64,000 nt of DNA from Balneola sp. Lineage in GTDB: Bacteria; Bacteroidota; Rhodothermia; Balneolales; Balneolaceae. The stretch's first letter is position 1. Every line of letters begins with the position of its first letter. A program made the translations under genes and the position numbers. The stretch covers positions 2,257,178 to 2,321,177 of the forward strand of contig OZ271847.1 of the NCBI GenBank assembly GCA_965601915.1. The letters run 5' to 3'. The notes below the pieces were generated by a model. That model was not told where the DNA came from and made no database searches. It worked only from the letters and a program-made list of their open reading frames with translations. Positions 29,443 through 48,280 of this stretch are shown one piece after another.

Positions 29443-29534
29443 TTGAATACATCTCTTTTAATGTGGAAGTTAGAATTGGTTAATGAAGCCAAATAAACTT
29501 GGTTAATTGCTATCTTTCTTTATATATCAAGAAG

Positions 29535-35500: not shown

Positions 35501-37055
35501 AATATCGGATTCACTGAAAATGAATGATGGAGAACTTCTTATTCCAAGTGGCAAAAACTTGATAGCTGATGGGATATCTTACGGAACAGGCGTTCTGCGT
35601 TTTCAGAGGAAAATTTCAGGGGTGCGTGGATGGCGGCTCCTCTCCTCTCCAGTTGCTTCTACCTACGGAGATTTCCTGGATGGAACACTAACCCAGGGCT
35701 ATTCAGGTTCAACTTTGGGAAACACACCATTAGATAGCTTACAACCTAACGTATTAACATATCTTGAAAGCTTCCCCGGTACAGATAATCAAAGATATCG
35801 TGCTCCGTCAAGTTCTGCGGCTTCACTAAACGCGGGCCAGGGAATGTTCGTATTCTTTTTTGGTGATGTTCCTGCGGATGCCCGCTACAATGATCCTCTA
35901 CCGGATACATTGGATGTAGTTGGGCAGGAATTTTTTGGAACTGCGGGAGAAATAGATTTTGGTGTCACCTATACTACAGCTGCAGACTCAGGATGGAATC
36001 TGGTCGGAAATCCGTTTGGCGCCACAATCGATTGGGATGATTCTCCAAACTGGACAAAAACCAATATCGAATCAACCATTTATATTTGGGACCCTGCCGC
36101 AAATGGCGGAAATGGAGAATACCTGACGTGGAACGGTGTAACAGGAACTTTAGGAAGCGGACTAATTGCTCCTTTTCAGGGCTTTTGGGTTAAGGCTTCT
36201 TCATCCAGCCCGGAATTAAAAGTAACTAAAGACGCCAAAACAACAGGTGGGAATTTTCTTAGAAAAGAAAATTTGAGCTCAACTCCTGTAATTCAATTAA
36301 CTGCTTCCGTCAACAGTCTCAGTAAAAGAACTAATTTCATGTTCAGTGATCAAGGAAGTAAAAGCAGGGATCCTAAAGATGGATTTAGATTAATTCCATT
36401 TTCAAGCTCAAATATTGAATTCTATTCTTTACTTGACGATGGTACCCAACTATCGATAAACAGTCTACCACTGGAATTAACAAACCGCCTCAAAATTCCT
36501 TTACAGTTAAATGCTTTTGAAAATCAGCTTCCTGTTAATGGAACGTTCAGAATTTCTGCCAGTGGGATTAAAGGAGCTCCCGATGAGTGGTTAATTTGGT
36601 TAATAGATAATGAAAAAGGAATCAAAATTAATCTTAGAGAAGAAAACACTTACGAGTTTAATCATAGCACTAAAAGTAAGATGTCCTCTAATGTATCACA
36701 CGGAAAAGTTAAGCTCAAGGAAAAAGAACGCTCAACGTCGACAAGATTTACACTTCAAATAACTACTGAAGAAATTGAAGCAAACATCCCTGAAACAGCT
36801 TTTTTAAATCAAAATTATCCCAATCCATTTAATCCAAAAACTACTATTCCTTTTGGCATCGATAAAGATTCTGAGGTTACACTCGAAATATTCGACATTT
36901 TGGGCCGTAAAATAAGTACAGTAATTGATCAGAGATTAACTGCTGGTTCGTATAACATTAGCTATCAGGCTCAAAATCTTGCCAGCGGTGTATACTTTTA
37001 CAGATTAACTACAGACTCTAAAACTTTTATCCAGAAATTCACTCTTATAAAATAA
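29535..37055 (+). CDS. Giant T9SS-sorted adhesin-like protein, paralog of 21445-29442
   Basis: It has the same domain order as the preceding gene and is diverged at nucleotide level. I prefer the start MHTGKRIH... at 29535 (signal peptide ...ILMAQLPGY) over the listed 29499. Confidence 0.85.
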   Translation: MHTGKRIHIAIVIFFMTFLWSDILMAQLPGYSNRKKFSIDNTQVSGVTDLTNFPVLFSFTDNDLRTTANGGNVENSNGFDITFTSADGSTQLDHQLESYNAVTGEIIAWVKFPTLGATTDTDFYVYYGNSSQTTDQSTTNTWNSNYQAVLHFDDFADATSNGNNGTNNGTTSTSGKIGNARSFTTAGGNDFVSVTDDATLDITGEITLSAWLNVNNFGDTPDLITKGDYTEAYSTWIRSDGTLRFATDGSTLTSSSSITSGSTVYVTFTKTASGRNIYINGTAAGSDAVTTAFSTNNNPLYISTSGFGINGFIDEVRVSNTAHSSDWISTEYNNQNNPGTFYSEVSDPPVLSDIENDPITFTSGGSAVFITSDISISAPYIANLASAEIQITGNYLSSDDTLTFIDTGSISGSWNDGSGTLTLTGTASIANYQTALRNIRYENTNNSPDQSTRTISFTVSDGSNDSNTESRELDIITSLSDLSTDFANTVFHFDAQDVDGDLLTNDQPTDGASVTTWGDRSDNAGGSGANIVATAPGGDEPVFNSDYFGERGGLFFDFNSGDAGDNFQLNDDALLNTGGPYDEKSFALVFRTGTDLSGLQIIYEQGGGSNGYQFSIKDGDLFAYAWSTNAEWVDGDDQSINLGSLETNTSYILVASHDANALIWEASVNGNARIQSAGAAGTMNNHGGDATIAEEDGTNDPVTFGNPATTNNFDGYIAELISWNTTLNGGQFASINDFLCDKWCNTPPQLANVEATNLDYTEGDAATVVTSALTVSDVDNTILDSAYVSITSNFESSEDVLDFTPIGNISGSYNSTEGILVITGTDTKANYQTALRSVTYENLNGVDPSTSLRQVDFMVFDWDDSSNVDSRTINVIADNSTPVLTSIEGGTLSYTENDGAVSITSSITISDPDDTNFESAEIEISGNYFLGEDVLGFANTANIIGSWNSTTGILTLSGTATLAEYQAALRNVTYENSSSDPVELDRTISFTVNDGDADSNTQSRDVSVTSTNSKPLLSNIEATTPTYQGTDLQITNTIEVSDPDDTSVDSAIVVINGNFKAAEDSLIYFPVFGISGTYNDSNGRLKLSGTSSFSDYQTALRSVKYRNFGSIPTGPAREISFIVSDGELKSDSLKRTIEVNAVEAINGLEVWLRADVGVVTSGSEVVTWQDQSGNSNDFTGTAGSGNRPTFISSSVPLGEQPSIDFAGNGDHFLDNDGETNYINGMTEFTLFLVYKSDETNSDQGMWIADDPNGSDEIFTMRYDASGANTGGSFTNVVKVGILGNDADNQLESFSDIQNTQTQITSLHWESGTTFDLYVDGILNNPSAAGTPPSGSISNATKAIVGKGGKDTGNNSWNGQIAEVILYGKNLNEDEREKVEDYLAEKYSTAIRKITAATGGEAISADDANSSYTSLSGPIIQEGFAGELTGSGTIVLQAPVGYEWNTGATVTVTEAAAYGGSTTLDASFTSITSSLLTITIDTESSSNPGEITLSGLQIRPTTGVLPNTGNIQNVGSTGLGGATNYGTLEMVPGTQDSLIFIQQPSDTNKDSIITPSVRAQIVDQFGNEVENAGVSISMALTTGSGILSGTLSDNTNSLGIADFADLTIDEIGSKRITASAPGISSTISNEFDIVNAGTLIAFRVERTPSGNISAKTAGQTFNTVITAIDGTGSTVTSFNGTVVVTSNCTLETGQGTTANFSSGVLSTHSLSISSVGNCSITATNSAGAQTGISNTFNVSAGAPSEETSIITASPTVILNNGSSTSTITVDVKDEFGNNVSSGGSTVTLMITPTALGSLGSVTDNGNGTYTATLTSSLSTGTDNITGTLNGSAITDDANVEYASFTHIWESQLGSASAASDWEDVDNWNVGSVPGVTSVVLIPADPEVGNEYPVVDVSGGIASSITFEPGANLTISGGINFTVGGDLNGGSVLGSNTDSLTIGGDVINVSEITVGTVVLNGSSEQAITDPHEYTNLVIDNSNGVSVIDNLVISDSLKMNDGELLIPSGKNLIADGISYGTGVLRFQRKISGVRGWRLLSSPVASTYGDFLDGTLTQGYSGSTLGNTPLDSLQPNVLTYLESFPGTDNQRYRAPSSSAASLNAGQGMFVFFFGDVPADARYNDPLPDTLDVVGQEFFGTAGEIDFGVTYTTAADSGWNLVGNPFGATIDWDDSPNWTKTNIESTIYIWDPAANGGNGEYLTWNGVTGTLGSGLIAPFQGFWVKASSSSPELKVTKDAKTTGGNFLRKENLSSTPVIQLTASVNSLSKRTNFMFSDQGSKSRDPKDGFRLIPFSSSNIEFYSLLDDGTQLSINSLPLELTNRLKIPLQLNAFENQLPVNGTFRISASGIKGAPDEWLIWLIDNEKGIKINLREENTYEFNHSTKSKMSSNVSHGKVKLKEKERSTSTRFTLQITTEEIEANIPETAFLNQNYPNPFNPKTTIPFGIDKDSEVTLEIFDILGRKISTVIDQRLTAGSYNISYQAQNLASGVYFYRLTTDSKTFIQKFTLIK

Positions 37056-37150
37056 CAGTGAAATTATAGTTCACATTAGAACGTTCTTATTAAAAAGAAT
37101 TAACTGGTTAATTAGTGATTAGATTTCAATCTTTGTTTAAAAAGTCAGCA

Positions 37151-37654
37151 ATGAACCGTTTTTGTGCATTTATATTCTCTTTTCTCTTAGTGACATCGGC
37201 AAAAGCACAGGATAATTCCAAAAAAAGCTTTAATGCGGATATAAATATAACTGCAACTGTAATACAAACAATTGAAATTGTTACTGTACAGAATATAAGA
37301 CTTGCGGGTATGGATCCGGTAAACAATCAATTCCTGATACCTCCCACTACAAGTGCTAACGCAGGATTTATGATTGCAAGAGGTAATCCGGATGCTGAAA
37401 TAAGGATCACTTATCAACCTTCTCAGATTTTAAATCAAATCAATGGTGATGGAATTATCCGGGTAAATTACCAGCTTTCCGGAAATGATATTGAAGAACA
37501 ATTGACTTCTGAAATACTTCAGGTCGAAAACAGAAATTTCACTTTCAACAGTGAAGGTGAATTCTTTATATGGGTTGGTGGAAGAGTTTTTATTGAGCAA
37601 GCAAAACCTGGGAGTTACGAAGGCGAATTCACCGTAGAAATCGATTATATCTAA
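37151..37654 (+). CDS. DUF4402 / spore-coat-U-like pilin paralog 1
   Basis: Signal peptide (MNRFCAFIFSFLLVTSAKAQ). The C-terminal motif is WVGGRVFIEQAKPGSYEGEFTVEIDYI, of the form G.Y.G.f.V...Y followed by the stop. I prefer the ATG at 37151 over the listed GTG at 37115. Confidence 0.6.
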   Translation: MNRFCAFIFSFLLVTSAKAQDNSKKSFNADINITATVIQTIEIVTVQNIRLAGMDPVNNQFLIPPTTSANAGFMIARGNPDAEIRITYQPSQILNQINGDGIIRVNYQLSGNDIEEQLTSEILQVENRNFTFNSEGEFFIWVGGRVFIEQAKPGSYEGEFTVEIDYI

Positions 37655-37658
37655 TCCA

Positions 37659-38249
37659 TTGAAAAAAGCATTGTACATATCAACCTTCTTGATAGTGTTT
37701 TTGACTGGTACTACTGTTTCAGCTCAGGAAATAGATTTCGGAGATTATTATAACTATACACTAACAGTTGCTGAACTTAACCCTGGAACTGATTTTGAAT
37801 TCGGAACTATTGTTTCCGGATCAGGATCTAATGTACTAACAATTGCTAATTCTAAAGTTATCACTATTACGGGCGTCAAATATTTAGATGTGTTTGTTAC
37901 CGTAACAGCAGATGATGAATTACTATTGGGAGGAAATCCCGGGTGTGTTGGTGACCCGAGCTGCAGTATAGATTTTGAACTAGAAGCTGCATACGCAAAT
38001 CGGGGAAGTAATAATATAGGACAGGCCCGTATTATCTCTGTAACTGCCAACTCAGGAACAGCACAATTTCCAATCAAATATAGAACAACTGCTCCACCTT
38101 CACCTCCCCCAACTCCGGTCTATGAAGGTTACAATCCTGCAGCCTTTAATGAAACAGCTTACTTATATATATACGGCTCTTTGAGTGTTGGTACTGTTAA
38201 TGCCGGAAGTTATACCGGAAATATTGACGTTACTTTGATATATGATTAA
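37659..38249 (+). CDS. DUF4402 / spore-coat-U-like pilin paralog 2
   Basis: TTG start 4 nt after the previous stop, and a signal peptide. It has an FEFGTIVSGSG motif and the C-terminus IYGSLSVGTVNAGSYTGNIDVTLIYD. A proline-rich insert (TAPPSPPPTPVYEGY) is present. Confidence 0.6.
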   Translation: MKKALYISTFLIVFLTGTTVSAQEIDFGDYYNYTLTVAELNPGTDFEFGTIVSGSGSNVLTIANSKVITITGVKYLDVFVTVTADDELLLGGNPGCVGDPSCSIDFELEAAYANRGSNNIGQARIISVTANSGTAQFPIKYRTTAPPSPPPTPVYEGYNPAAFNETAYLYIYGSLSVGTVNAGSYTGNIDVTLIYD

Positions 38250-38778
38250 TAAGATTATCAAATATAATAGCGTCTTATCCCTTTTTCTGATTCTGTTTTT
38301 ATTAAATCCTTTATTAGGGTTTGGACAATACATAAATATCCAGATAGAACTTGAACCTGAATTTCAAACAGAAGTAGTTTCTGAACTAAATTTTGGAGAT
38401 ATAGTCGTTGGCTCGGGTGAAAAATCCATTCAATTAGGAGATTCTAATATGGGAATCTTTTCTGTTACAGGAATAAATTCTCAATCTGTACGACTTTCTA
38501 TAGACACTCCTTCAACACTTACACATTCAGATCCATCTATTACAGATAGCATACCTTTCGATATCCGAGCATCTTATAACAATAGTGGAGAGAACACAAT
38601 TCAGGGTTCTGAGCCTATAAACGGCGATATTGCTTATACCGTAATCAACAGAAATGCTTTAAAAAATCAATTCGAATGGCAAACCATGTACGTATTTATA
38701 TATGGAACTATAATGGTTGGCAATATACAGGATGGAGTTTATAACGGGTTTATCCGCCTAACCGTGGATTATGAGTAA
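38242..38778 (+). CDS. DUF4402 / spore-coat-U-like pilin paralog 3
   Basis: It overlaps the previous gene by 8 nt and has a signal peptide. It carries LNFGDIVVGSGE and the C-terminus IYGTIMVGNIQDGVYNGFIRLTVDYE. Confidence 0.6.
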   Translation: MINKIIKYNSVLSLFLILFLLNPLLGFGQYINIQIELEPEFQTEVVSELNFGDIVVGSGEKSIQLGDSNMGIFSVTGINSQSVRLSIDTPSTLTHSDPSITDSIPFDIRASYNNSGENTIQGSEPINGDIAYTVINRNALKNQFEWQTMYVFIYGTIMVGNIQDGVYNGFIRLTVDYE

Positions 38779-38862
38779 ATCTTAATTAAAGACTTCTAAC
38801 TTGGAATCACATTTTGATATTCCGAACTTTTTCTCAACGAACAAATTAAACTAATTTCGATC

Positions 38863-39366
38863 ATGAAAAATTTAAAATCACTTTTCGCTCTTATCGCAGT
38901 ATTCGCATTTGCAGGTTCTGCTGCATTCGCTCAGGAAACCGCTAACGTTGCAGTTACAGCTCAAGTTGAAGCAGCTCTTGTTTTAACTCCAACTGACATC
39001 GCTCTTGGAACTATCCAAACTGGCGCTGCATCAATTATTGATGCTAACGCTAACGATGATGCTACTGAAGCTAACTTAGGTGACGGTGCTTCTGCTGGTT
39101 CTCTTCAGATTGTTGGTACTTCAGGTGTTGACGTTGTTGTTGCATGGGACGACGCTACTCTTGACAATGCAGGTACTACTGATGCAATTGCTTTTGTACC
39201 TTCTGTATGGTTAGGTGCTTCTGAAGTAACTGATGGTGGAACTGTTACATTAACAGGTGGAGATATTACTCTTGATGTTGGTGGTGCGCTTGCAGCTCCA
39301 TCCGGAACTGGTGCTTACAGTACTGCTAACGGAACTCCAATCGTATTCACTATTACTTACGATTAA
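38863..39366 (+). CDS. DUF4402 / spore-coat-U-like pilin paralog 4 (probable major subunit)
   Basis: Signal peptide (...GSAAFAQE) and an Ala/Thr/Gly/Val/Asp-rich mature protein with the C-terminus GAYSTANGTPIVFTITYD. It shows a strong preference for GCT, GTT, ACT and GGT codons, unlike its neighbours. It has its own 84-nt leader and a strong terminator after the stop. Confidence 0.65.
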   Translation: MKNLKSLFALIAVFAFAGSAAFAQETANVAVTAQVEAALVLTPTDIALGTIQTGAASIIDANANDDATEANLGDGASAGSLQIVGTSGVDVVVAWDDATLDNAGTTDAIAFVPSVWLGASEVTDGGTVTLTGGDITLDVGGALAAPSGTGAYSTANGTPIVFTITYD

Positions 39367-39382: not shown

Positions 39383-39416
39383 AAAAAGTCTCGTTGTTAA
39401 ACGAGACTTTTTTTTT
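39383..39416 (+). terminator. Rho-independent terminator or attenuator after the putative major pilin gene
   Basis: Stem GTCTCGTT (39388-39395) / AACGAGAC (39400-39407) with a 4-nt loop, followed by nine T and preceded by AAAAA. Confidence 0.75.
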
Positions 39417-39498: not shown

Positions 39499-40332
39499 AT
39501 GAAAAAGCTTTTATTGTTACTTATAGTAACTTTGACAATTGGTGTTGATTATAGTTTTTCCCAGATAACAATCTCTCCAACCAACCTTTTTATTGAAGAA
39601 AACACAAAGTTTGGGACGTATCTGGTAATAAATGGGTCTAACGAACCTCAGGAAGTATCCGTTGATTTTATCTTCGCATACACAACCTCTGATAACGAAG
39701 GAACCAGAAGTGTAATTTATGATGATGCTGAAACAGAAGCAGCATTTTCTGCTCATGAGTGGGTTCGTGCTTTCCCAAAAACTTTCACTTTGCAGCCAGG
39801 ACAACGACAAATTGTTAGGTTAAGGGTTTCCCCAACATCCGGATTGGACGATGGAACCTACTGGGCTCGTATAAAAACCTCTTCCTCGGCGCAAACACCT
39901 CCGGTTGAACTACAGGAATCAGGCGCTGTATCTGCAAGGGTGGGAATCACAATAGAACAAATAACAGGACTTTTTTATAAAAAAGGTAATGTGACAACTG
40001 GAATCAATGTAACAGAAACCAGAACAGAGATGTTAGATAATAATAATACCCTCGCAGTTATCTCTGATTATGTAAGAGGTGGGAATTCTCCTTTCCTAGG
40101 TTCTATTACACTGAATATTAAAGACTCAGGTAATAAAGTAGTCGCTTCATCTTTCAGATCGACTTCACTTTATTTTGATGGTACACATCGACAGGAAGTT
40201 GATATAAGTAATTTACCTAATGGGTCGTATTCTGTTGAGCTAATTTTTGAAGCTCAGAGAAATGATGTATCAGCGGACGATATTGTTCCAATGGATACAG
40301 AAACTGTTACTACACAATTTGTTAAGAGTTGA
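39499..40332 (+). CDS. PapD-like periplasmic pilus chaperone candidate
   Basis: 277 aa with a signal peptide. ITISPTNLFIEENTKFGTYLVINGSNEPQEVSV ... FPKTFTLQPGQRQIVRLRV follows the pattern of the chaperone-usher chaperone N-domain (i.v.P....l......l.v.N....p..v.v ... l.P..f.l.pg..q.vRl). Confidence 0.55.
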   Translation: MKKLLLLLIVTLTIGVDYSFSQITISPTNLFIEENTKFGTYLVINGSNEPQEVSVDFIFAYTTSDNEGTRSVIYDDAETEAAFSAHEWVRAFPKTFTLQPGQRQIVRLRVSPTSGLDDGTYWARIKTSSSAQTPPVELQESGAVSARVGITIEQITGLFYKKGNVTTGINVTETRTEMLDNNNTLAVISDYVRGGNSPFLGSITLNIKDSGNKVVASSFRSTSLYFDGTHRQEVDISNLPNGSYSVELIFEAQRNDVSADDIVPMDTETVTTQFVKS

Positions 40333-43322
40333 TATTTGAAAAATGGAAATATATTTCTCTACTTTTAATCATCTTCAGCCTTCTTGCTTATACAAAACCT
40401 GTATCCGCTCAAGAAGAACCAGAAGATGAAATAGAAGTATATCTTTCATTTTCTTACCGTAGTGCAGTAAATTCAGTAGTTATCGCCTACTATAAAAATG
40501 ATAAATTTTACCTCCCCTATCGTGAGTTATTTCAGTTACTTGAAATTGATCAAAATACAGATCTAACTAACAATAAGATCATACTAAAAGGTCGTTTTTT
40601 AGAGGAACAGACCCCTTACTCAATAAATTTATCCGACAACCAGGCAACATTCGGTGATCAAAGCTTCCAATTAACGCAGGAAGAATATATGATCAAGGAA
40701 TTGGATTATTATTTGGAAAGCTCTTTATATGATAAAATATTTGATTTAAAATTTTCGGTGGATTTTAACAACCTCGCAATCCAACTGGATACACCAAATA
40801 ATATTCCTGTAGTTGAACGCATTATGAGGCGTAATCAAAGACAGTTGATTGCTCGAAATCAAACCTTAGTTGATAAAAACTATGAACTGAAGTATGACCG
40901 TAATCGTAAAGTATTTGGGGCCGGTTTTCTTGATTACAACCTCTCTACAATAAATACTGTTGATTCCGACCTTTTTATTTACAACGCATCTATTGGCGGT
41001 GAACTATTGGGCGGAGATGTACAAGGTGCATTGAACGGAGCTATATCTTCTGATATCAATAATTTTACAACAGACAATTTACGCTGGAGGTATGCAATCC
41101 CTGGTAGTGAAATACTCACTTCAATACAAGCTGGCCAGGTTGCATCTGACGGATATTTAGGAGCTCCATATACCGGAGTCAGACTCACGAACCAACCAAT
41201 AGAGCCTCGAAGATTATATGATGAGTTCATTATACAGGGAAATACAATCCCTAGATCAGAAATTGAACTTTATTTGAATAACACACTTGTTGATTTTCAG
41301 GAATCTGATGCTGCAGGAAACTATCGGTTTATTACTCCATTGACGTATGGTACTTCCTCATATGATATTAAGATTTTTGGACCGACCGGTGAAATCATCG
41401 AACAATCAAAAAGAATCCAAGTCCCTTTTTCTTTCCTACCTAGTGGAGAAATCAATTATAACGTAAATGTTGGTAGACTTAACAATCCGATAATCGGAAC
41501 CAATGATAGAGGAATGCTTGGCCAGGGTAATGTGAGAGTAGGTCTTTCAAATTGGCTAACTGCTAATGCCGGTGTTGAATATTTTGAAGATTATCATTCA
41601 GATATCCCTACTTTCAATGGTGGTTTTTCTGCAAGATTGATGAATAAATATCTTATTACAACCGAATTCCTTTCTGGGATCTTAGCAAAGACTCGCGGAA
41701 GTGTGATTTTAGCCAACTCTTCCAGTATAGGTCTTAGTTATACTAACTTTTTTGAAAATACGGGTATCTATAATACTGCAGGTGTTGATCAAGAGATTCA
41801 GGGAAGTTTATTCTACCCGTTTCGTTTTGGAGACATTCCCTTAAACGTGCGGTTATTTGCTTCCAGATTAGAAAGAAAACCTCGCCCCCTTTCAAGATAT
41901 CGGGTAGATTTAAGTACGCGTTTTGGAAGACTTAATTTACGTTCAGGTTTCAGTAATTCGAGTTCAGGAGAGAACTTTTTTGATATTGCAGAAAACGCTG
42001 AAGTTACACTTTCAGCTACTTATACCTTTCCCAGATATCAGACTACTCCTAAATTTTTTCACGGTTTATTTGCAAGATCTGAGCTTTCATTTTTGCCTAA
42101 TACTAATGAACTCGGCGAAGCTGGCTTGTTTGTCTCTAAAAGTGTTTTCAGACAGGGCAATTTACAGCTAAACTATTCCAGAAATTTCAAGTTCTCTTAT
42201 GATGCTTTCTCTTTCGGATTGGTTATTGATTTTAATAAAGTCAGGGTAAATTCAAGATTAAACAGCCTTCGTGGAAATAATACGTTCACGAATACAATCA
42301 GAGGATCTGTTGGATATGATCCTATTAATAGAAATGTATTATTAACAAGTAGAAATCAGGTTGGGAGATCTGCAGCAGCTGTTCGTTTATTCGTTGATTA
42401 TAACGGAGACGGAATCTACAATGAAGGGGATGATATCATTGATAGTGACGCGGTTAGAATTGATAGAACCGGAAGTAAATCAGGTACAAAAAATGGAATC
42501 ACCTATATCACACAAATGCAACCTTATTACAGGTATAACATGGAGGTTAATAAAGGGGCAATTCAAAATCCTTTACTGGTTCCTGAAAACGATAAATTTG
42601 CATTAATTACTGACCCAAACTTTTTCAAACAGATTGAAATACCATTTTATTCATCAGGAATAATTGAAGGAATGGTTAACAGATATTTTTCATCAACTAC
42701 AAAAAGTGGAATTGGAGGAGTAAGGTTATTTCTCAGCAATAAGGTAAATGATGAAGTACTTGAAATAAGAACGTTTTCTGATGGTAGTTTTTACTCCTAT
42801 GAAATTCCTCCGGGCAAGTACCGTCTCAGAATTGATCAGAACCAGTTAGATGTATTGCAAGCTTCTTCAGATCCTGAATTCATAGACTTTGAAATAAAAG
42901 CCCTTGCTGAAGGCGATTTTATAGAGGGTATGATCTTTAATATAATTCCTGATGGAGTTATACCTGAAGAAGATAAAATCAATGAAAACGCAATACTTAC
43001 AGATCTGGAAAACAGCTCTGAACTCAATGAGTATGAAAATGAACTCAGATCTAAAGTAGATGAAACACTACGTTTAATTGTAAAAGCTCAGAACGCTTTT
43101 TACAGCAGAAACACTAATCAAGCATTAGATTTTGTTAATCAATCTTTGGAAATATTCAAAACCGCCCAAGGATATGCTTTAAGGGGCAGTTTACTCTACC
43201 TTCAAGGGAATAAAGAAGAGGCCCAAAAAAGCTGGGATATGGCTACAAGATTCAATCCAGATATTTATATTCCTGATACTGAAACATTGGATCAGATCAT
43301 CAAAACAGAACATGGCGATTAA
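40329..43322 (+). CDS. Usher-like outer-membrane beta-barrel protein with C-terminal TPR module
   Basis: TTG start overlapping the chaperone stop (TTGA), and a signal peptide. It has an usher-like N-domain, a plug-like segment (IELYLNNTLVDFQESDAAGNYRF...YDIKIFGPTGE) and a long stretch of amphipathic beta strands. A CarboxypepD_reg-like domain (GGVRLFLSN...SDGSFYSYEIPPGKYRLRI) and a TPR-like tail complete it. Confidence 0.5.
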   Translation: MIFEKWKYISLLLIIFSLLAYTKPVSAQEEPEDEIEVYLSFSYRSAVNSVVIAYYKNDKFYLPYRELFQLLEIDQNTDLTNNKIILKGRFLEEQTPYSINLSDNQATFGDQSFQLTQEEYMIKELDYYLESSLYDKIFDLKFSVDFNNLAIQLDTPNNIPVVERIMRRNQRQLIARNQTLVDKNYELKYDRNRKVFGAGFLDYNLSTINTVDSDLFIYNASIGGELLGGDVQGALNGAISSDINNFTTDNLRWRYAIPGSEILTSIQAGQVASDGYLGAPYTGVRLTNQPIEPRRLYDEFIIQGNTIPRSEIELYLNNTLVDFQESDAAGNYRFITPLTYGTSSYDIKIFGPTGEIIEQSKRIQVPFSFLPSGEINYNVNVGRLNNPIIGTNDRGMLGQGNVRVGLSNWLTANAGVEYFEDYHSDIPTFNGGFSARLMNKYLITTEFLSGILAKTRGSVILANSSSIGLSYTNFFENTGIYNTAGVDQEIQGSLFYPFRFGDIPLNVRLFASRLERKPRPLSRYRVDLSTRFGRLNLRSGFSNSSSGENFFDIAENAEVTLSATYTFPRYQTTPKFFHGLFARSELSFLPNTNELGEAGLFVSKSVFRQGNLQLNYSRNFKFSYDAFSFGLVIDFNKVRVNSRLNSLRGNNTFTNTIRGSVGYDPINRNVLLTSRNQVGRSAAAVRLFVDYNGDGIYNEGDDIIDSDAVRIDRTGSKSGTKNGITYITQMQPYYRYNMEVNKGAIQNPLLVPENDKFALITDPNFFKQIEIPFYSSGIIEGMVNRYFSSTTKSGIGGVRLFLSNKVNDEVLEIRTFSDGSFYSYEIPPGKYRLRIDQNQLDVLQASSDPEFIDFEIKALAEGDFIEGMIFNIIPDGVIPEEDKINENAILTDLENSSELNEYENELRSKVDETLRLIVKAQNAFYSRNTNQALDFVNQSLEIFKTAQGYALRGSLLYLQGNKEEAQKSWDMATRFNPDIYIPDTETLDQIIKTEHGD

Positions 43323-43343
43323 GACGGCTTTGCTAAAAGTGCA

Positions 43344-45206
43344 ATGATTAAGACATATACTTCTTTTACTGTTAAAAGAATTTTTATTCAGCCTTACATA
43401 TGTATTGCAGTATTCTTTTTTTTCTTTTTTCCTGATGTAAATGCTCAATCCAATACTTCAAGTCTTGCTCAGTCATCTGATATTCAAATTGCTACTCTTG
43501 AACAAGGTTATGACTCTCAGGTAATTCAGGTTATTGCTAATCACTTTGATCGTAAAAAGTTTTTTGTTGATGTAAATATTGACGCTGAATTTACTGAGGA
43601 AACTGTTACCACAACCGGAAACGCGGCAGTAACTCAACGACCTCAAAACGTCTTACTTCCCGGACTCCCATTTCTTCCACAAGAAAACCTGCAAAACACT
43701 CCTCAGTCAACTACTACCAATGAACCGGTAGTTAATCAAAATGTAGTTCGAAGACTTCAACTCAATAACATCGTCGTAAATATCTATGCTGATACAAGTT
43801 TTTCTGTAGACGAATTAGACTTTATGAGACAAATTGCTGGGTTTGCAGCCAAAATAAACCCGGCCAGAGGAGATCAAATCAATATTACTCAGCTGGCAAT
43901 TCCAGATCCCGATTTCAAACCAATTCCCATTGAAACAACCGATATTACTGAGCAAACAGCTGAACCAACTACTTTTATTTCTTCTTTAAGTAATTACATT
44001 ACTGAATTTATACTTATTGGTTTATTTATTCTTTCTCTGATCGCTCAAAATATTTTTAATAAAGACAAAAGCTCGTCTTCAAATCTGAGATTAGAAAGAG
44101 GAAGTTTGCAGGGAAGTTTAAGTTTAGATGGTGGTGGGTTACCCTCTTCAATGGGAAGTGAAAATCCTGGAAATTTCAGTAATCAGTCATTTAATATTAC
44201 CACTTCAGAAGAAGAGTTTTCTATGAAAGAGTTTGATGAACTCTCAAAAAATTTCTTCACTAAACCCGAAGAAACCGCACTTCTCCTAGAATACTGGATT
44301 GATGAAGACCCAATTAACGGAGCTAATAAAGCAGCTGAAATTATTGCATCTGGCGACTCTACTCTTATACGTTCTATCAAAAAAGATTTGCCAGAGGATA
44401 AATACAGTGATATAGTACAGGCTTTGGAAGAACTGCCCCCAATGACTATTGAAGAAAAGAATAAAGCCGCTAAATACTTTAATACCCTGATCAAGGAGGG
44501 CGAAAACAAAACATCAAAAAAGAAAAATTACGCCAACCTGGGGCTCTTTAAATTTCTTGAGCACGTTACCAATACTCAGTTGATGGAGCTACTTAAGAAT
44601 GAAACTAATCAAACAGCAGCATTGGTTATAGATTACCTTCCGGAAGAAAAAGCAGCTGAAATAATCAATAAACTTGATGGCGAAAAAGCAACAGAAATAA
44701 TGCTTAAGATGTCAACGCTGCATAATCTTACTTACAAACAACATAGTTTAATATCATCCAGACTTTTTGATAAGGTTGTTGAAATCAGAGATGTTGAAAA
44801 ACAAGAAAAGCTTGGGATGGATAACATTCTGCCAATTCTAGAGAAACTTCCTATAAAAGAACAAAAACGCTATATCCAACAAATAAAAGAGTCCGGATCG
44901 GCACTGGGAGAAATGCTTGAAGCCAGATTTTTGACTGTTGATCAGATACCGGAACTCTCTGAAGAGATAGTAAAAGAAGGCATTGAGCCACTAAACACAC
45001 CTACCTTGCTTGAGGCTTTAATTGGATTAGAGAAAGCTGCTGTTGATAAAATCTTATCTGCACGTCCTAAGAGAGAGCAGAAATTGATCAGGATGGAGCT
45101 CGAAAATGTAAGTGATTCTGAAGGAACTGACGAAGCTAAGACCATACTTCTAAGTTCGCTCAGAAAAGCTTACGCCGTACATCTCGAAGAAGAAGTTGTA
45201 GATTAA
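43344..45206 (+). CDS. Fusion protein: FliF/YscJ-like periplasmic ring domain, one TM helix, then FliG-like N, middle and C domains
   Basis: It has a signal peptide. VVRRLQLNNIVVNIYAD...DELDFMRQIAGFAAKINPARGDQINITQ resembles the FliF C-terminal periplasmic region (..RLSVAVvvn...ie.lv..a.Gf...RGD.l.V). A TM helix follows (FILIGLFILSLIAQNIF). The cytoplasmic part has FliG-like segments: GANKAAEIIASGDS (N), LLKNETNQTAALVIDYLPEEKAAEIINKLDGEKATEIMLKMSTL (middle, compare LKNEHPQTIALVLSYL...) and FLTVDQIPELSEEIV...LLEALIGLEKAAVDKIL...KREQKLIRMELEN...DEAKTILLSSLRK (C). Confidence 0.7.
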   Translation: MIKTYTSFTVKRIFIQPYICIAVFFFFFFPDVNAQSNTSSLAQSSDIQIATLEQGYDSQVIQVIANHFDRKKFFVDVNIDAEFTEETVTTTGNAAVTQRPQNVLLPGLPFLPQENLQNTPQSTTTNEPVVNQNVVRRLQLNNIVVNIYADTSFSVDELDFMRQIAGFAAKINPARGDQINITQLAIPDPDFKPIPIETTDITEQTAEPTTFISSLSNYITEFILIGLFILSLIAQNIFNKDKSSSSNLRLERGSLQGSLSLDGGGLPSSMGSENPGNFSNQSFNITTSEEEFSMKEFDELSKNFFTKPEETALLLEYWIDEDPINGANKAAEIIASGDSTLIRSIKKDLPEDKYSDIVQALEELPPMTIEEKNKAAKYFNTLIKEGENKTSKKKNYANLGLFKFLEHVTNTQLMELLKNETNQTAALVIDYLPEEKAAEIINKLDGEKATEIMLKMSTLHNLTYKQHSLISSRLFDKVVEIRDVEKQEKLGMDNILPILEKLPIKEQKRYIQQIKESGSALGEMLEARFLTVDQIPELSEEIVKEGIEPLNTPTLLEALIGLEKAAVDKILSARPKREQKLIRMELENVSDSEGTDEAKTILLSSLRKAYAVHLEEEVVD

Positions 45207-45736
45207 TGAGACCTAAAAAGCTGCACATATTATCATTGTTCTTTATTTTAGGCATCTTAGTATTTTTTGAAACCGGATGTAGATCATCTGAAAAAGCATC
45301 CGGAAATTTAAATTCTGCAACTGAGAATTCAGATTCTTCTCCAGAGAGTTTTTCTGAAGCTCCGGAAACCCGATCTGACGATGAAATCCGTGATTCCTTA
45401 AGCTCATTTTTAAAAGATGAATTGAAGGATTATTATCATGCACAAGCCAACCGCCTAACTTCTTTTTATATTCTTGCCCAACAAAGATTTTACAGTGCTG
45501 AGTATGATCAGGCATTACTACTTATAAACAGAGCTGCAAACATCAAAGAAACAGCAGATGTTTTGGCGTTGAAAGGAAGTATTTATTACGGCTTGGGATC
45601 TATTGAAAACTTTGTATCAAATTGGAAACAAGCTCTGGACTTGGATAAAAATGTACCCATTCCGCCTTCTCCACCCATAGTTGAAGAACTTAAACGTCAG
45701 GGTTTATTGAATGATAACCTTGAAAGAAATTACTAA
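45206..45736 (+). CDS. TPR-like lipoprotein
   Basis: The ATG overlaps the previous TAA (TAATG). It has a lipobox (FFETGC) and an acidic, serine-rich linker. The C-terminal TPR-like module ALLLINRAANIKETADVLALKGSIYYGLGSIENFVSNWKQALDLDKNVPIP is paralogous to the tail of the usher-like protein. Confidence 0.6.
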   Translation: MRPKKLHILSLFFILGILVFFETGCRSSEKASGNLNSATENSDSSPESFSEAPETRSDDEIRDSLSSFLKDELKDYYHAQANRLTSFYILAQQRFYSAEYDQALLLINRAANIKETADVLALKGSIYYGLGSIENFVSNWKQALDLDKNVPIPPSPPIVEELKRQGLLNDNLERNY

Positions 45737-45742
45737 CGCTTA

Positions 45743-46540
45743 ATGAAGATCTCTTTTTCAAATATTATCAGCTTTTTGGTTTCTCTTGGAATTCTGGTTT
45801 GGGGGTCATTAATGGTTATAGGGTTTACAGAATATAATGTGATTCCATCTGAGCTTGATTTTTTAAACCTACCGAGTCTTGCCATAGTCTTCGGAGGTAT
45901 TTCGGCAAGTGTATTTATCAGTTACCCTTTTGGAAAAGTGATCAGAGCGTTCAGAGAAAGTTTCCGGTTGTTTTCTCAAAGTAATATTGATGATAAACTC
46001 CTTGAACAGGATATTGAAAATATACTTGAATGGCAGAAGATGATACGTATAGACAGAAATGCCGCAGTATCTCAACTTAGCGAACAATACAGTAATCGTT
46101 TTGAAGGGTATCTATTTTCAATTCTGGATACTAATTATTCAACCGAAGAATTCCGCGAATTAGGTCAAATTAATATTCAGGAAACGTATACCCGTCAACA
46201 GCAGATCAATCAAATAATGGTAAGTATGGGTAAAACTGCTCCTGTTTTTGGGATGTTGGGAACCCTTTTTGGCTTGATTGTTATTCTATCTGGTTTTAAT
46301 GAAGTTGAATCTTTGCTTTCAGGATTGGCTGCGGCATTAATGACTACTTTATATGGAATTTTGATAGGAAATTTCCTCTTCACCCCTATGGCAAAGAAAA
46401 TGAATAATATTGCCTCTCTTCAATATTTCAGAGAAAAAATGATTCTTGAAGGCGTTTTACTTATTCAAGATCAGAAATCATCTTTGCAGATTTATGACAA
46501 GCTTAAAGCTCATATGCATCGCAATGTTCAACAGTTTTAA
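45743..46540 (+). CDS. motA: MotA/PomA-type stator channel protein (MotA/TolQ/ExbB family)
   Basis: 265 aa with a four-TM layout and a large cytoplasmic loop. The signature is GKTAPVFGMLGTLFGLIVIL...GLAAALMTTLYGILIGNFLFTPMAKKM. Confidence 0.8.
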   Translation: MKISFSNIISFLVSLGILVWGSLMVIGFTEYNVIPSELDFLNLPSLAIVFGGISASVFISYPFGKVIRAFRESFRLFSQSNIDDKLLEQDIENILEWQKMIRIDRNAAVSQLSEQYSNRFEGYLFSILDTNYSTEEFRELGQINIQETYTRQQQINQIMVSMGKTAPVFGMLGTLFGLIVILSGFNEVESLLSGLAAALMTTLYGILIGNFLFTPMAKKMNNIASLQYFREKMILEGVLLIQDQKSSLQIYDKLKAHMHRNVQQF

Positions 46541-46552
46541 TTATTGTGAACC

Positions 46553-48280
46553 GTGAGTTTAGAAGATCCATACAAACAAAAAAATTCTCTCTACCCTGAT
46601 CAGGAAATTGAATCCGCTGATGATGACAGCTGGCAGGTTAGTTATCTGGATATAATAACCATTATTCTGGGCTTTCTGATCATTCTTCTTTCTGTTTCTT
46701 CTTTGAATGATATAGAAACATTTTCGGTCTCCGATTTATTTAAATCATCTGAAAATGAAACAGAATTCATCACAACTCCGATTGAGCAAATAAAAGAAAG
46801 ACTGGAAGCTTTATTAGCCCAAGAAATTGAAGCAGGTCAGCTGGAAATATTTAGGGAATTAAATGACGTCAAGATAAAACTTAGAAGCGATGATATATAT
46901 CGCTCTGGAAGCGCTGAAATTCAGCCTTCATCTAAAGAGATGCTTAATCGGGTTTTAGCAGCTTTCAGACTCATTGAGTATGATGATTTTGAAATAGATG
47001 TGGAAGGACATACAGATAACGTTCCTATAACTACGGCATCTTACCCTTCCAACTGGGAACTTTCAACAGCCAGGGCATCAAATGTGGTTAAATACTTCAA
47101 TCAAATGGGAATAGACGAAGAAAGACTTAAAGCATCCGGATATGCTTCTTCCCGACCTGTAATTGAATTTGATGATCAGGGAAACCCTATTGCAGCGTCA
47201 AGAAGTAAGAACCGCAGAGTTGTTTTGAGATTATACTATTCTACGCCTGAGCAATTGATTGCTGAAAATTCAGACTCTAAAAACTCTGAGAGCCCCTCTT
47301 CAGACACTCAACAGAATAATCCTGAAGAAGAAGGTTCTGAAATTTCAAATACTACTGATGAAGCTAATACTGAAACTGAAGAAACAGCCCCTTTAACAGA
47401 AAACACTGTTGAAGATAAAGCCGATAACAAAAAAGAAGAGCTTGCCGAAGCTACTCCCTCCCCTGTTATCAAGTCTGAAGACATAAGCAAGCAGCCAAGA
47501 GCAAATAATCAATTGTCTGTTGTTGATGCTGAAGGCTGTAGTTTTTCTGTAGAAGCAGGAAATTATGAATCTTTTGCCAACAGCATCAGGGCTGCTAATC
47601 AAGCTGAAACAGCTACAGGCACCGATTTTGAGATCGTATACAACAATTTTTTATTTTCGGTTAGAAGTACTCCTCAAAATTCAATAAGACAAGCAATTAC
47701 TCTCCAGAAAAGTGCTCAAAGTTCCATTTCCAGTTCTGAATCTGCCTCTGTTATCAATCAATGTTATTCGCAGCCTTATCAATATCCCGAGAATCTTAAA
47801 TACATTATTCAGTTAGGTTTTTTCTCGAGCGAACAAAATGCTGCAAATTTCAGAGATAATTTAAATTCTGAATATAACATAGACGCTAAATTGGAAAATC
47901 TATCTGTTCAGGCGCATACTGTTTATGCTGGACCATTTGTAAATCGAAGTGCAGCCCAACAAAGGATCTCAGAATTCCGAGAGATCGAATTACTTAACAA
48001 CGCATTTATTAAATATGATCAGGGTACAGTTTCTGATTACTCTTATGATTATCAGATCTTGGCTGGCTCTTATCCTAGTAAAACCAAAGCCTTTCAGATA
48101 TCTCAAAGCCTTCAGAATCAATATAATATCAGATCAGAAGTAAAAACTAAAGCAGACGGTTATTCTTATGTAATTACTGAAAATCAGAATGATATGGACA
48201 GGGCTTTGATCGTAATAGATCAATTGACCGGATCAAATCTGGATATTGACCCGGTCATATTTTTAACAGAGAAAAATTAA
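46553..48280 (+). CDS. motB: MotB/OmpA-family stator protein with acidic linker and two C-terminal SPOR-like domains
   Basis: GTG start. The TM segment carries a conserved Asp (WQVSYLDIITIILGF, D33, GAT at 46649-46651). The OmpA-like peptidoglycan-binding domain reads EGHTDNVPI...SNWELSTARASNVVKYF...NRRVVLRL. An acidic low-complexity linker follows, then two SPOR-like repeats (YIIQLGFFSSEQNAANFRDNL...; YQILAGSYPSKTKAFQISQSL...). Confidence 0.85.
   Translation: MSLEDPYKQKNSLYPDQEIESADDDSWQVSYLDIITIILGFLIILLSVSSLNDIETFSVSDLFKSSENETEFITTPIEQIKERLEALLAQEIEAGQLEIFRELNDVKIKLRSDDIYRSGSAEIQPSSKEMLNRVLAAFRLIEYDDFEIDVEGHTDNVPITTASYPSNWELSTARASNVVKYFNQMGIDEERLKASGYASSRPVIEFDDQGNPIAASRSKNRRVVLRLYYSTPEQLIAENSDSKNSESPSSDTQQNNPEEEGSEISNTTDEANTETEETAPLTENTVEDKADNKKEELAEATPSPVIKSEDISKQPRANNQLSVVDAEGCSFSVEAGNYESFANSIRAANQAETATGTDFEIVYNNFLFSVRSTPQNSIRQAITLQKSAQSSISSSESASVINQCYSQPYQYPENLKYIIQLGFFSSEQNAANFRDNLNSEYNIDAKLENLSVQAHTVYAGPFVNRSAAQQRISEFREIELLNNAFIKYDQGTVSDYSYDYQILAGSYPSKTKAFQISQSLQNQYNIRSEVKTKADGYSYVITENQNDMDRALIVIDQLTGSNLDIDPVIFLTEKN

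Follow-up and report, generated by a model that had tools for sequence, protein, structure and literature searches.

In a 64,000-nt stretch of a Balneola sp. genome (GenBank assembly GCA_965601915.1, contig OZ271847.1, positions 2,257,178 to 2,321,177 of the forward strand; hereafter the window), we identified a gene whose product we regard with high confidence as a natural fusion of the flagellar rotor proteins FliF and FliG. The protein, here called FliFG, is encoded by one ATG-initiated open reading frame (ORF) in the ORF listing of the window (43344..45206, + strand, 620 amino acids (aa)). The G+C content around the gene is ~36%. Outside any flagellar context, FliFG probably works as a rotor or energy-transducing ring that is powered by the MotA/MotB-type stator (MotAB) encoded next to it. 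More tentatively, the output of this motor may go to a fibre-assembling outer-membrane usher encoded just upstream. A previous interpretation made from the letters alone (the sequence-only reading) had already proposed a FliF-type ring-building domain, one transmembrane (TM) helix and a complete FliG in a single chain. This architecture was borne out by Pfam, profile and Foldseek comparisons, and the ORF as well as every motif quoted at the time were recovered in the 620-aa sequence. The map of the gene is as follows.

43344..45206, + strand: FliFG, FliF(RBM3-TM2-C-tail)-FliG fusion gene (Pfam, profile against PDB sequences, AlphaFold2 (AF2) model with Foldseek, colinear E. coli alignment)
43344..43445, + strand: probable Sec signal peptide, aa 1-34, predicted cleavage between VNA and Q (sequence rules)
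43476..43898, + strand: single ring-building motif (RBM) of FliF RBM3 type with a long, collar-like beta-hairpin, aa 45-185 (AF2, Foldseek, YscJ_FliF_C in relatives)
43659..43679, + strand: invariant PGLPFLP motif in a disordered loop at the hairpin tip, aa 106-112 (alignment of 33 homologs)
43995..44063, + strand: single TM helix, aa 218-240, equivalent of FliF TM2 (AF2, E. coli FliF alignment)
44205..44315, + strand: two helices equivalent to the C-terminal FliG-binding tail of FliF, aa 288-324, with invariant F304 and W318 (profile alignment, shuffles)
44316..44498, + strand: FliG N-terminal-domain-like region, aa 325-385 (match to 5tdy_B, E. coli FliG alignment)
44541..44843, + strand: FliG middle-domain-like region, aa 400-500, with ETNQ for EHPQ (Pfam FliG_M)
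44880..45179, + strand: FliG C-terminal-domain-like region, aa 513-612 (Pfam FliG_C)
45063..45107, + strand: torque-helix equivalent RPKREQKLIRMELEN, aa 574-588 (invariant residues, E. coli alignment)

All three FliG domains, previously assigned by eye, were detected in the cytoplasmic half above their Pfam cut-offs: FliG_N (32.4 bits, cut-off 25), FliG_M (48.1 bits at aa 411-465, cut-off 25, E = 1.4e-12) and FliG_C (32.4 bits at aa 513-592, cut-off 23.3). For further comparison, two profiles were used, one derived from an alignment of 33 FliFG homologs with 36-74% identity (close-family profile) and one from 14 distant family members (distant-family profile). Pfam found FliG_C in all 14 distant relatives (best E = 1.8e-22). 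The close-family profile matched the middle and C-terminal domains of Thermotoga maritima FliG (1lkv, E = 8.5e-21), full-length FliG of A. aeolicus (3hjl, E = 7e-16) and, with its positions 313-379, the N-terminal domain of T. maritima FliG (residues 3-69 of 5tdy_B, E = 1.2e-3). In the AF2 model, residues 288-619 were all-helical, with predicted local distance difference test (pLDDT) values of 75-84 for the domains, and the top rank in Foldseek was taken by full-length FliG (E = 2e-8, ~315 aligned columns).

Two strings quoted in the sequence-only reading, LLKNETNQTAALVIDYLPEEKAAEIINKLDGEKATEIMLKMSTL (FliG-middle-like) and KREQKLIRMELEN (torque-helix-like), lie at aa 416-459 and aa 576-588, respectively. 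Alignment to E. coli FliG confirmed that EHPQ is replaced by ETNQ: E125 and Q128 are kept as E420 and Q423, while H126 and P127 are lost. E. coli R160 corresponds to K455. The MFXF hinge reads RFLT, with F529 and T531 invariant. Within the torque helix, R574, R577, E578 and E585 were invariant in the 33 aligned sequences; R577 and E585 correspond to E. coli R281 and D289, D288 is replaced by M584, and K264 and R297 showed no conservation. Thus, the earlier observation that the torque-helix charges are partly conserved stands. Taken together, the motif comparison indicates that elements for FliM docking and switching are degenerate, while the stator-facing surface is partly retained.

The N-terminus of FliFG has a basic n-region, a 15-residue hydrophobic core and small residues at −3 and −1. 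An A-Q junction after the hydrophobic segment recurs in close as well as distant relatives, and the signal peptide is probably cleaved at this predicted AXA-type site. No Cys follows it, so a lipobox is absent. FliFG is best explained as a type-I inner-membrane protein. For the periplasmic part, where a ring-building fold had been expected, AF2 predicted an alpha-beta-beta-alpha-beta fold (helix 45-65, strands 73-92 and 129-150, helix 155-169, strand 178-184; pLDDT ~80). Foldseek matched it to at least 17 FliF RBM3/S-ring entries, among them 8zdt_A, 6sd1_A, 7d84_A and 8z4d_1, with E ~1e-4 and a template modeling score (target) of ~0.5. In the search with the FliFG model, FliF RBM3/beta-collar structures came directly after the FliG matches, and unrelated folds appeared only from E = 0.05. 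The signature RRLQLNNIVVNIYAD...MRQIAGFAAKINPARGDQINI, quoted as FliF-like in the sequence-only reading, spans aa 136-182 (nt ~43749-43889) of this fold. Pfam YscJ_FliF_C remained below its gathering score of 23.8 in FliFG itself (11.6 bits, E = 0.39) and was found in 9 of the 14 distant members (best E = 3.6e-6). There was no match to PF01514 (YscJ_FliF) in FliFG, and the model contains a single RBM.

The first two strands, ~20 residues each, form a hairpin and are joined by a disordered 36-residue loop (pLDDT <50 in the model). In this loop, P106, G107, L108, P109, L111 and P112 of the PGLPFLP motif were invariant in the 33 sequences, and the motif's G97 and P99 were invariant in the 14 distant members. 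As a hypothesis, the loop could be a ligand for the tetratricopeptide repeat (TPR) modules described below. The hydrophobic helix at aa 218-240 (nt 43995-44063) is the single TM helix of the sequence-only reading; in the model the helix extends over residues 211-241, it aligns to residues 452-470 of E. coli FliF, and basic residues lie C-terminal of it.

The nature of the junction became evident from alignment of the distant-family profile with E. coli K-12 FliF and FliG as reference sequences. Profile positions 123-316 aligned to FliF 368-551 (of 552), and positions 320-605 to FliG 7-318, with FliG 7-65 falling on positions 320-378. The aligned stretch of FliF comprises (i) the last beta-alpha-beta unit of RBM3 with a shared RGD motif; (ii) TM2; (iii) the cytoplasmic linker; and (iv) the C-terminal FliG-binding helix. 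E. coli FliF scored 28.9 bits against the profile, compared with 12.7 bits for the best of 2000 composition-preserving block shuffles. In the FliG-binding tail, the family strings '...PekvarllekWiekkg' and '...PqeiallfeyWlded' face '...DPRVVALVIRQWINNDH' of E. coli FliF (the 'VALVIRQW' helix); the corresponding segment in the window is PEETALLLEYWIDED, which includes the invariant W318. A 41-column profile of the putative FliF-tail helices returned only noise against PDB sequences. The colinear order, FliF then FliG, identifies FliFG as a seamless head-to-tail fusion of the kind expected from read-through between neighboring fliF and fliG genes. In the best reading, TM1, RBM1 and RBM2 of FliF have been replaced by the signal peptide. 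The resemblance to PrgK/YscJ suggested in the sequence-only reading did not hold up as an origin, since FliF RBM3 was preferred by Foldseek (E ~1e-4 vs. 0.13), a lipobox is missing, and the chain is colinear with the C-terminal third of FliF.

MgtE_N also passed its Pfam cut-off in FliFG (37.1 bits), and SpoIIIAG and PrgK appeared as weak Foldseek matches (E = 0.10 and 0.13). These hits would fit a helical-repeat sensor of the MgtE-N type, or a secretion or channel ring of the SctJ/SpoIIIAG type that develops no torque, but we consider either very unlikely. FliF RBM3 matched ~1000-fold better than the two ring proteins, and no lipobox is present. Both FliG_M and FliG_C passed their cut-offs and the profile alignment runs through the torque helix, so the cytoplasmic region is not an MgtE-N repeat lacking FliG_C. 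Moreover, cognate motAB genes always adjoin the fusion gene in the Balneolaceae loci, while no type III secretion system (T3SS) gene, secretion ATPase or export-gate gene was found near FliFG in the window. Two specific candidates were rejected: an MgtE magnesium transporter, as Pfam found no CBS or MgtE membrane domain in FliFG, and an injectisome ring (SctJ/PrgK/YscJ), given the absence of a lipobox Cys, of an RBM1+RBM2 pair and of T3SS genes nearby.

Three genes follow the fusion gene on the same strand.

45206..45736, + strand: probable lipoprotein, 176 aa, with a TPR module specific to the family; its start codon shares 1 nt with the FliFG stop codon
45743..46540, + strand: flagellar-type MotA/PomA stator subunit, 265 aa (Pfam MotA_ExbB, NCBIfam, PDB profiles)
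46553..48280, + strand: MotB-type stator subunit, 575 aa (Pfam MotB_plug, OmpA and SPOR; TM Asp33)

The MotA protein scored ~100 bits with the NCBIfam models for MotP, MotA and PomA. Its best matches among PDB sequences were flagellar MotA proteins of the C. sporogenes and B. subtilis type (8ucs_C/6ysf, E = 6e-24); PomA was matched with E = 7e-19. It is the most conserved gene product of the block (66-95% identity across 46 orthologs); in its cytoplasmic loop, position 105 is basic in 46 of 46 orthologs, and acidic residues occupy 114/115/121. MotB combines a plug, an OmpA-like domain and C-terminal SPOR repeats, and its D33 aligns to D32 of E. coli MotB. A Zorya anti-phage system was also considered and dismissed, as PADLOC found no ZorA and only generic ZorB/MotB matches.

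Neither the 64-kb window nor the relatives' loci examined contained genes for FliM or FliN, and no genes for an export apparatus, rod, hook, filament or chemotaxis lie in the FliFG locus. The non-flagellar setting claimed in the sequence-only reading is supported, and the stator, TPR adaptor and usher next door make it a much stronger case. In a genome survey, KEGG flagellar-assembly genes were reported to be absent from Balneola, Fodinibius and Gracilimonas tropica DSM 19535, which were described as non-motile, and the Balneolaceae were proposed to be losing flagellar genes (PMC9909488). Balneola vulgaris alone is listed with 'flagella' and motility in a taxonomic compilation (PMC5167729); set against a genus reported to lack flagellar-assembly genes (PMC9909488), this entry means that either the survey missed genes or the filaments are of a different kind. 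Our literature search yielded only engineered fusions, and no natural FliF-FliG fusion, non-flagellar FliG-MotAB system, DUF4402 study or usher-motor link. The engineered FliF-FliG fusions are those of Salmonella and Vibrio (PMC10941966, PMC11481574; PDB 8z4d); they form MS-rings efficiently, and the Salmonella cells are motile with a clockwise bias (PMC10941966). They show that a rotor with FliF and FliG covalently linked 1:1 can work, which makes the one-chain design of FliFG mechanically plausible.

Full-length FliFG homologs were found in ~120 protein clusters and 47 species-representative loci, all assigned to Balneola, Balneolaceae or Gracilimonas. Cultured carriers are G. tropica DSM 19535 (L044) and Balneola sp. 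EhC07. In public databases the homologs are annotated as 'FliG C-terminal domain-containing protein' or 'hypothetical', and no NCBIfam model specific for the family was found. Gene order from the DUF4402 genes described below to motB was identical in every locus with enough flank (~45 species loci). The nonsynonymous divergence (dN) of FliFG from its closest relative was 0.19, with synonymous divergence (dS) saturated, and 58 alignment columns were invariant at 36-74% identity; the family is under purifying selection.

An exhaustive profile search extended the family to 145 cluster representatives (50% identity clusters) at E<1e-30, many of them ~600 aa long and matching the whole profile. The 14 distant relatives sampled among them were only 17-29% identical to each other's reference, with the exception of one pair at 45%, but had kept the signal peptide, the LPGLPxxP loop, RGD, the TM helix and the FliG N/M/C architecture. 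Beyond the Balneolota, the named members of the family come from candidate division KSB1 and from a 'Bacteroidetes bacterium' metagenome-assembled genome. In five unrelated contexts, the gene was part of a five-gene cassette encoding (i) the fusion; (ii) an outer-membrane protein of 355-377 aa with an aromatic C-terminal residue and a weak match to outer-membrane beta-barrels; (iii) a TPR lipoprotein; (iv) MotA; and (v) a short MotB. One of these contexts is a second, paralogous copy in a Balneola genome. The cassettes lie in the following loci.

L050, 10001-15046: five-gene cassette in Balneola, after rpoBC
L051, L052, L058 and L059: five-gene cassettes in the other contexts

In two distant relatives (P0166 and P0174), the C-terminus continues, by fusion or read-through, into the TPR lipoprotein encoded downstream, a Rosetta-stone link between ring and lipoprotein. 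Small genes for PilZ-domain proteins (receptors of cyclic di-GMP) were noted up to 6 kb upstream of two cassettes on unrelated contigs (L058 2278-2652 and L059 3409-3813), which recalls the YcgR brake of flagellar motors.

In view of this conservation, the idea that FliFG is a decaying remnant of a lost flagellum has almost nothing left to recommend it. It would fit the flagellar gene loss proposed for the Balneolaceae (PMC9909488) and the score of FliFG below the fliG equivalog threshold. However, the frame is intact and full-length throughout the 47 loci and ~120 clusters, and the invariant columns and the low dN at saturated dS speak for constraint. Furthermore, the architecture is kept at 17-29% identity in other lineages of the Fibrobacteres-Chlorobi-Bacteroidetes group, each with its own MotAB, and a Balneola genome carries the second cassette. 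Intact frames, invariant columns and conserved architecture together effectively refute a flagellar relic.

Upstream of the fusion gene, the window contains a cluster of chaperone-usher-like genes.

37115..39366, + strand: four small secreted DUF4402-type proteins (179, 196, 178 and 167 aa), putative fibre subunits (DUF4402, synteny)
39383..39412, + strand: strong terminator-like hairpin with a 13-bp stem and T-run, located after the last subunit gene and before the chaperone-like gene (hairpin scan)
39499..40332, + strand: candidate chaperone-like periplasmic protein, 277 aa (position before the usher, conservation)
40329..43322, + strand: outer-membrane usher (FimD/PapC fold), 997 aa, with an extra C-terminal TPR tail at aa 886-990 (AF2, Foldseek)

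Pfam gave only weak hints for the usher, and single-sequence searches of the PDB with the usher, the 277-aa protein and a DUF4402 protein yielded nothing useful. The AF2 model of the usher (pLDDT 81) aligned to FimD and PapC over ~900 columns in Foldseek (E = 1e-30 to 1e-15) and displayed an N-terminal domain, a 24-strand barrel with plug, C-terminal domains and an all-helical TPR tail. The four DUF4402-type genes were syntenic in relatives. The hairpin behind them resembles the attenuator that follows the major-subunit genes of classical pilus operons, and no comparable terminator-like site was found on the + strand from 39499 to 48280. Only 21 nt separate usher and fusion, 6 nt the lipoprotein gene and motA, and 12 nt motA and motB. 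The tight packing and the lack of an internal terminator suggest a single transcript for the chaperone-like protein, usher, fusion, lipoprotein, MotA and MotB.

Two shared modules connect the usher with the motor genes. First, the TPR module of the lipoprotein (~70 residues) is homologous to the C-terminal tail of the usher (E = 6e-9 within the window) and to the lipoproteins of the five-gene cassettes (E = 4e-12 to 6e-13), which in turn matched the usher tail with E = 4e-16 to 2e-11. Second, ushers occurred in two forms, one of ~1000 aa with the TPR tail and one of at least 1140 aa with C-terminal SPOR repeats. Usher orthologs from fusion-bearing loci all had 980-1008 aa (46 ORFs). Two loci with the SPOR-type usher, in Fodinibius salinus and Gracilimonas halophila, lack the fusion, the lipoprotein and MotAB; the locus of F. 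salinus occupies the same chromosomal position, by the pyruvate dehydrogenase genes and alaS. The SPOR block of these motor-less ushers was colinear with that of MotB in the window (triple SPOR, E = 2e-7); the regions compared were as follows.

L053, 10001-13516: SPOR-type usher of F. salinus
L054, 10001-13513: SPOR-type usher of G. halophila
Window, 47500-48280: SPOR block of MotB

The position of the SPOR block on MotB in one case and on the usher in the other points to a deletion event joining the usher to the MotB tail, or to the reverse event. These sequence relationships and the tight packing of the genes, all of them seen within a single bacterial family, are suggestive of motor and usher belonging together. 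Whether the motor works on the usher and its fibre is a separate matter, and we put this forward as a possibility that falls short of being probable. It is weighed against a real motor that has nothing to do with the chaperone-usher genes beside it, the adjacency being specific to this lineage and the true partner lying elsewhere, such as the small outer-membrane protein of the cassettes. This alternative, which we consider less likely than not, draws on the widespread five-gene cassette that has no usher, on the usher clusters of F. salinus and G. halophila that have no motor, and on the restriction of the adjacency to the Balneolaceae. It does not account for a TPR tail that, among the loci examined, occurs on ushers of motor-bearing loci only and is the same module as in the lipoprotein, for the SPOR block that sits on MotB here but on the usher in motor-less loci, or for the short gaps (21 nt from usher to fusion, 6-12 nt downstream) in which no internal terminator was found.

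The presence of rotor and stator parts, the lack of export, rod, hook, filament and switch genes, and the TPR-linked outer-membrane partners together favor a non-flagellar, ion-driven rotor or energy-transducing ring. In the proposed mechanism, FliFG would be exported by the Sec pathway and probably cleaved, after which the RBM3-like domains would oligomerize into a ring with one FliG unit per subunit on the cytoplasmic side. MotA and MotB would be anchored to peptidoglycan via the OmpA-like and SPOR domains of MotB and conduct ions past Asp33. The stators would push on the torque helix of FliG_C (R577/E585), so that the ring may turn or at least perform mechanical work. With no export apparatus, rod, hook, FliM or FliN, the output would leave from the periplasmic face of the ring through proteins bearing the family-specific TPR module. 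In the window, these would be the small lipoprotein and the C-terminal tail of the FimD/PapC-type usher, which presumably assembles fibres of DUF4402-type subunits. We infer ring formation and rotation from homology; contact between TPR modules and ring and the use made of the work are likewise inferred.

Several observations weigh against this scheme. On the side of the motor, FliFG reached 55 bits with the NCBIfam fliG equivalog TIGR00207 against a cut-off of 226.7, and is thus a FliG homolog but not an ordinary FliG. Only two of the five classical torque-helix charges are kept, with Met in place of D288, and the EHPQR and MFXF motifs are degenerate. E. coli MotA aligned to the MotA family over TM3-TM4 only, and its R90 and E98 could not be mapped. 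One KSB1 relative has no adjacent motAB, three of the 14 distant relatives (P0138, P0141 and P0174) carry an N-terminal LysM domain, and nothing rod- or shaft-like is encoded in the locus. On the side of the usher, there is no obvious reason for a protein of this kind in the outer membrane to receive torque. Its adjacency to the motor is confined to Balneolaceae and may be a single historical accident passed on by vertical descent. For the DUF4402 assignment, the first small protein scored 25.6 bits (cut-off 25.2) and two others stayed below threshold. Finally, the 277-aa protein had weak Ig-like Pfam hits and no Pfam PapD match, and its family profile found no match among PDB sequences, so it is only presumptively called a chaperone.

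Some of these points bear on how the ring would operate. The LysM domains would tie the ring to peptidoglycan in those members, which argues against free rotation and favors a Tol/Ton-like, non-rotating mode there. By extension, a FliFG ring that is static, partly mobile or a smaller oligomer might turn MotAB turnover into conformational work on outer-membrane partners, similar to ExbBD-TonB or TolQRA-Pal, and so gate or energize the usher, or else anchor or reshape the outer membrane. The missing rod, hook and bushing, the degenerate switching motifs and the arrangement of a TPR lipoprotein with an outer-membrane barrel, which resembles Tol-Pal or Ton, are in keeping with such a transducer. 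As a general account it is nonetheless unlikely: the stator is of the flagellar (PomA/MotA) type and not of the ExbB/TolQ type, large rings are the only assemblies that the RBM3/collar domain is known to form, and flagella generate torque with the same two charges that are invariant in the torque helix here. A ring driven by the adjacent MotAB, as a rotor or energy transducer, remains our preferred reading.

To our knowledge, a FliF/FliG rotor with a MotAB stator is known only as part of the flagellum. Research on flagellar evolution has long asked how the torque module arose and whether it can exist without the type III export machine. The FliFG family presents the rotor-stator module and nothing else of the flagellum, with a rotor made of S-ring, TM helix and FliG in one chain. 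It offers a minimal, compact rotor for structural and single-molecule work and a direct test of FliG-MotA torque generation outside flagella, as well as a candidate way for the inner membrane to power chaperone-usher fibres, which are normally energy-independent. A bolder and, in our estimate, improbable extension is a third kind of bacterial rotary surface organelle, in which an export-less FliF/FliG-MotAB motor would spin or drive a chaperone-usher fibre of DUF4402 subunits through TPR adaptors. Such an organelle might explain the 'flagella' and motility of B. vulgaris, and the five-gene cassette could then represent an export-less rotor-stator lineage that either is sister to the flagellar motor or branched off from it early.

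Further genes were noted upstream of the DUF4402 block. Three giant proteins of 1214, 2665 and 2518 aa (17706-21350, 21445-29442 and 29499-37055, + strand) have C-terminal sorting domains of the type IX secretion system (T9SS), and the two largest also carry DUF2341, LamG and invasin-D3 domains. This domain set presumably resembles that of MshQ-type pilus-associated proteins. Most relatives have an additional four or five genes in the interval from the giant protein to the DUF4402 genes, and these are absent from the window. In L002 they encode proteins of 139 aa, 194 aa, 473 aa (a DUF4900 protein) and 130 aa, the first three with N-terminal hydrophobic helices like those of minor pilins. Their positions are listed below.

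L002, 898-3728: extra upstream genes
L001, 927-3641: extra upstream genes
L053, 698-3455: extra upstream genes
L054, 3490-6217: extra upstream genes

A 1187-aa protein with ~10 PKD repeats, encoded at the start of the window (127-3690, + strand), is apparently unrelated to FliFG.

Compared with the flagellar rotor, FliFG has in common the RBM3/collar, TM2, the FliG-binding helix, the N, M and C domains of FliG and the equivalents of R281 and D289; its locus further shares with the flagellar stator a MotA/PomA-like A subunit and a MotB with plug, Asp and OmpA-like domain. In contrast to the flagellar rotor, which is built from two polypeptides, FliFG is a single chain. It lacks TM1, RBM1 and RBM2 of FliF, the parts that house the type III export gate, and has a probably cleaved signal peptide instead; with respect to flagellar FliG, it lacks the EHPQR motif that binds FliM/FliN. 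The locus also differs from flagellar loci in its neighbors, a TPR lipoprotein and an usher, and in the SPOR repeats of MotB. Like FliFG, the engineered FliF-FliG fusions are joined end-to-end at the natural termini, which gives a covalent 1:1 ratio of FliF to FliG. However, they contain full-length FliF and operate in true flagella, whereas FliFG is natural, comprises only the S-ring half of FliF and is non-flagellar.

SctJ/PrgK/YscJ and SpoIIIAG share the alpha-beta-beta-alpha-beta RBM fold with FliFG, and SpoIIIAG also has a beta insertion in its RBM. FliFG differs from SctJ and SpoIIIAG by the absence of a lipobox, of an RBM1+RBM2 pair and of secretion partners, and none of SctJ, PrgK, YscJ or SpoIIIAG carries FliG. 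GldLM/PorLM-T9SS, ExbBD-TonB, TolQRA-Pal, AglRQS-Glt and ZorAB resemble the proposed system in that an inner-membrane ion motor of the MotAB family delivers work to periplasmic or outer-membrane partners. These 5:2 ion motors act through the periplasmic extension of their own B-like subunit or a partner and have no FliG/FliF ring, whereas the stator described here belongs to the flagellar clade. Giant T9SS-secreted adhesin-like proteins lie upstream of the FliFG locus, as is the case with gliding adhesins. Classical chaperone-usher assembly needs neither an inner-membrane energy source nor a motor. The 997-aa neighbor of FliFG has the full usher architecture of FimD/PapC, but it differs from classical ushers in its uncharacterized, DUF4402-type subunits and in an added C-terminal TPR tail, which it shares with the lipoprotein.

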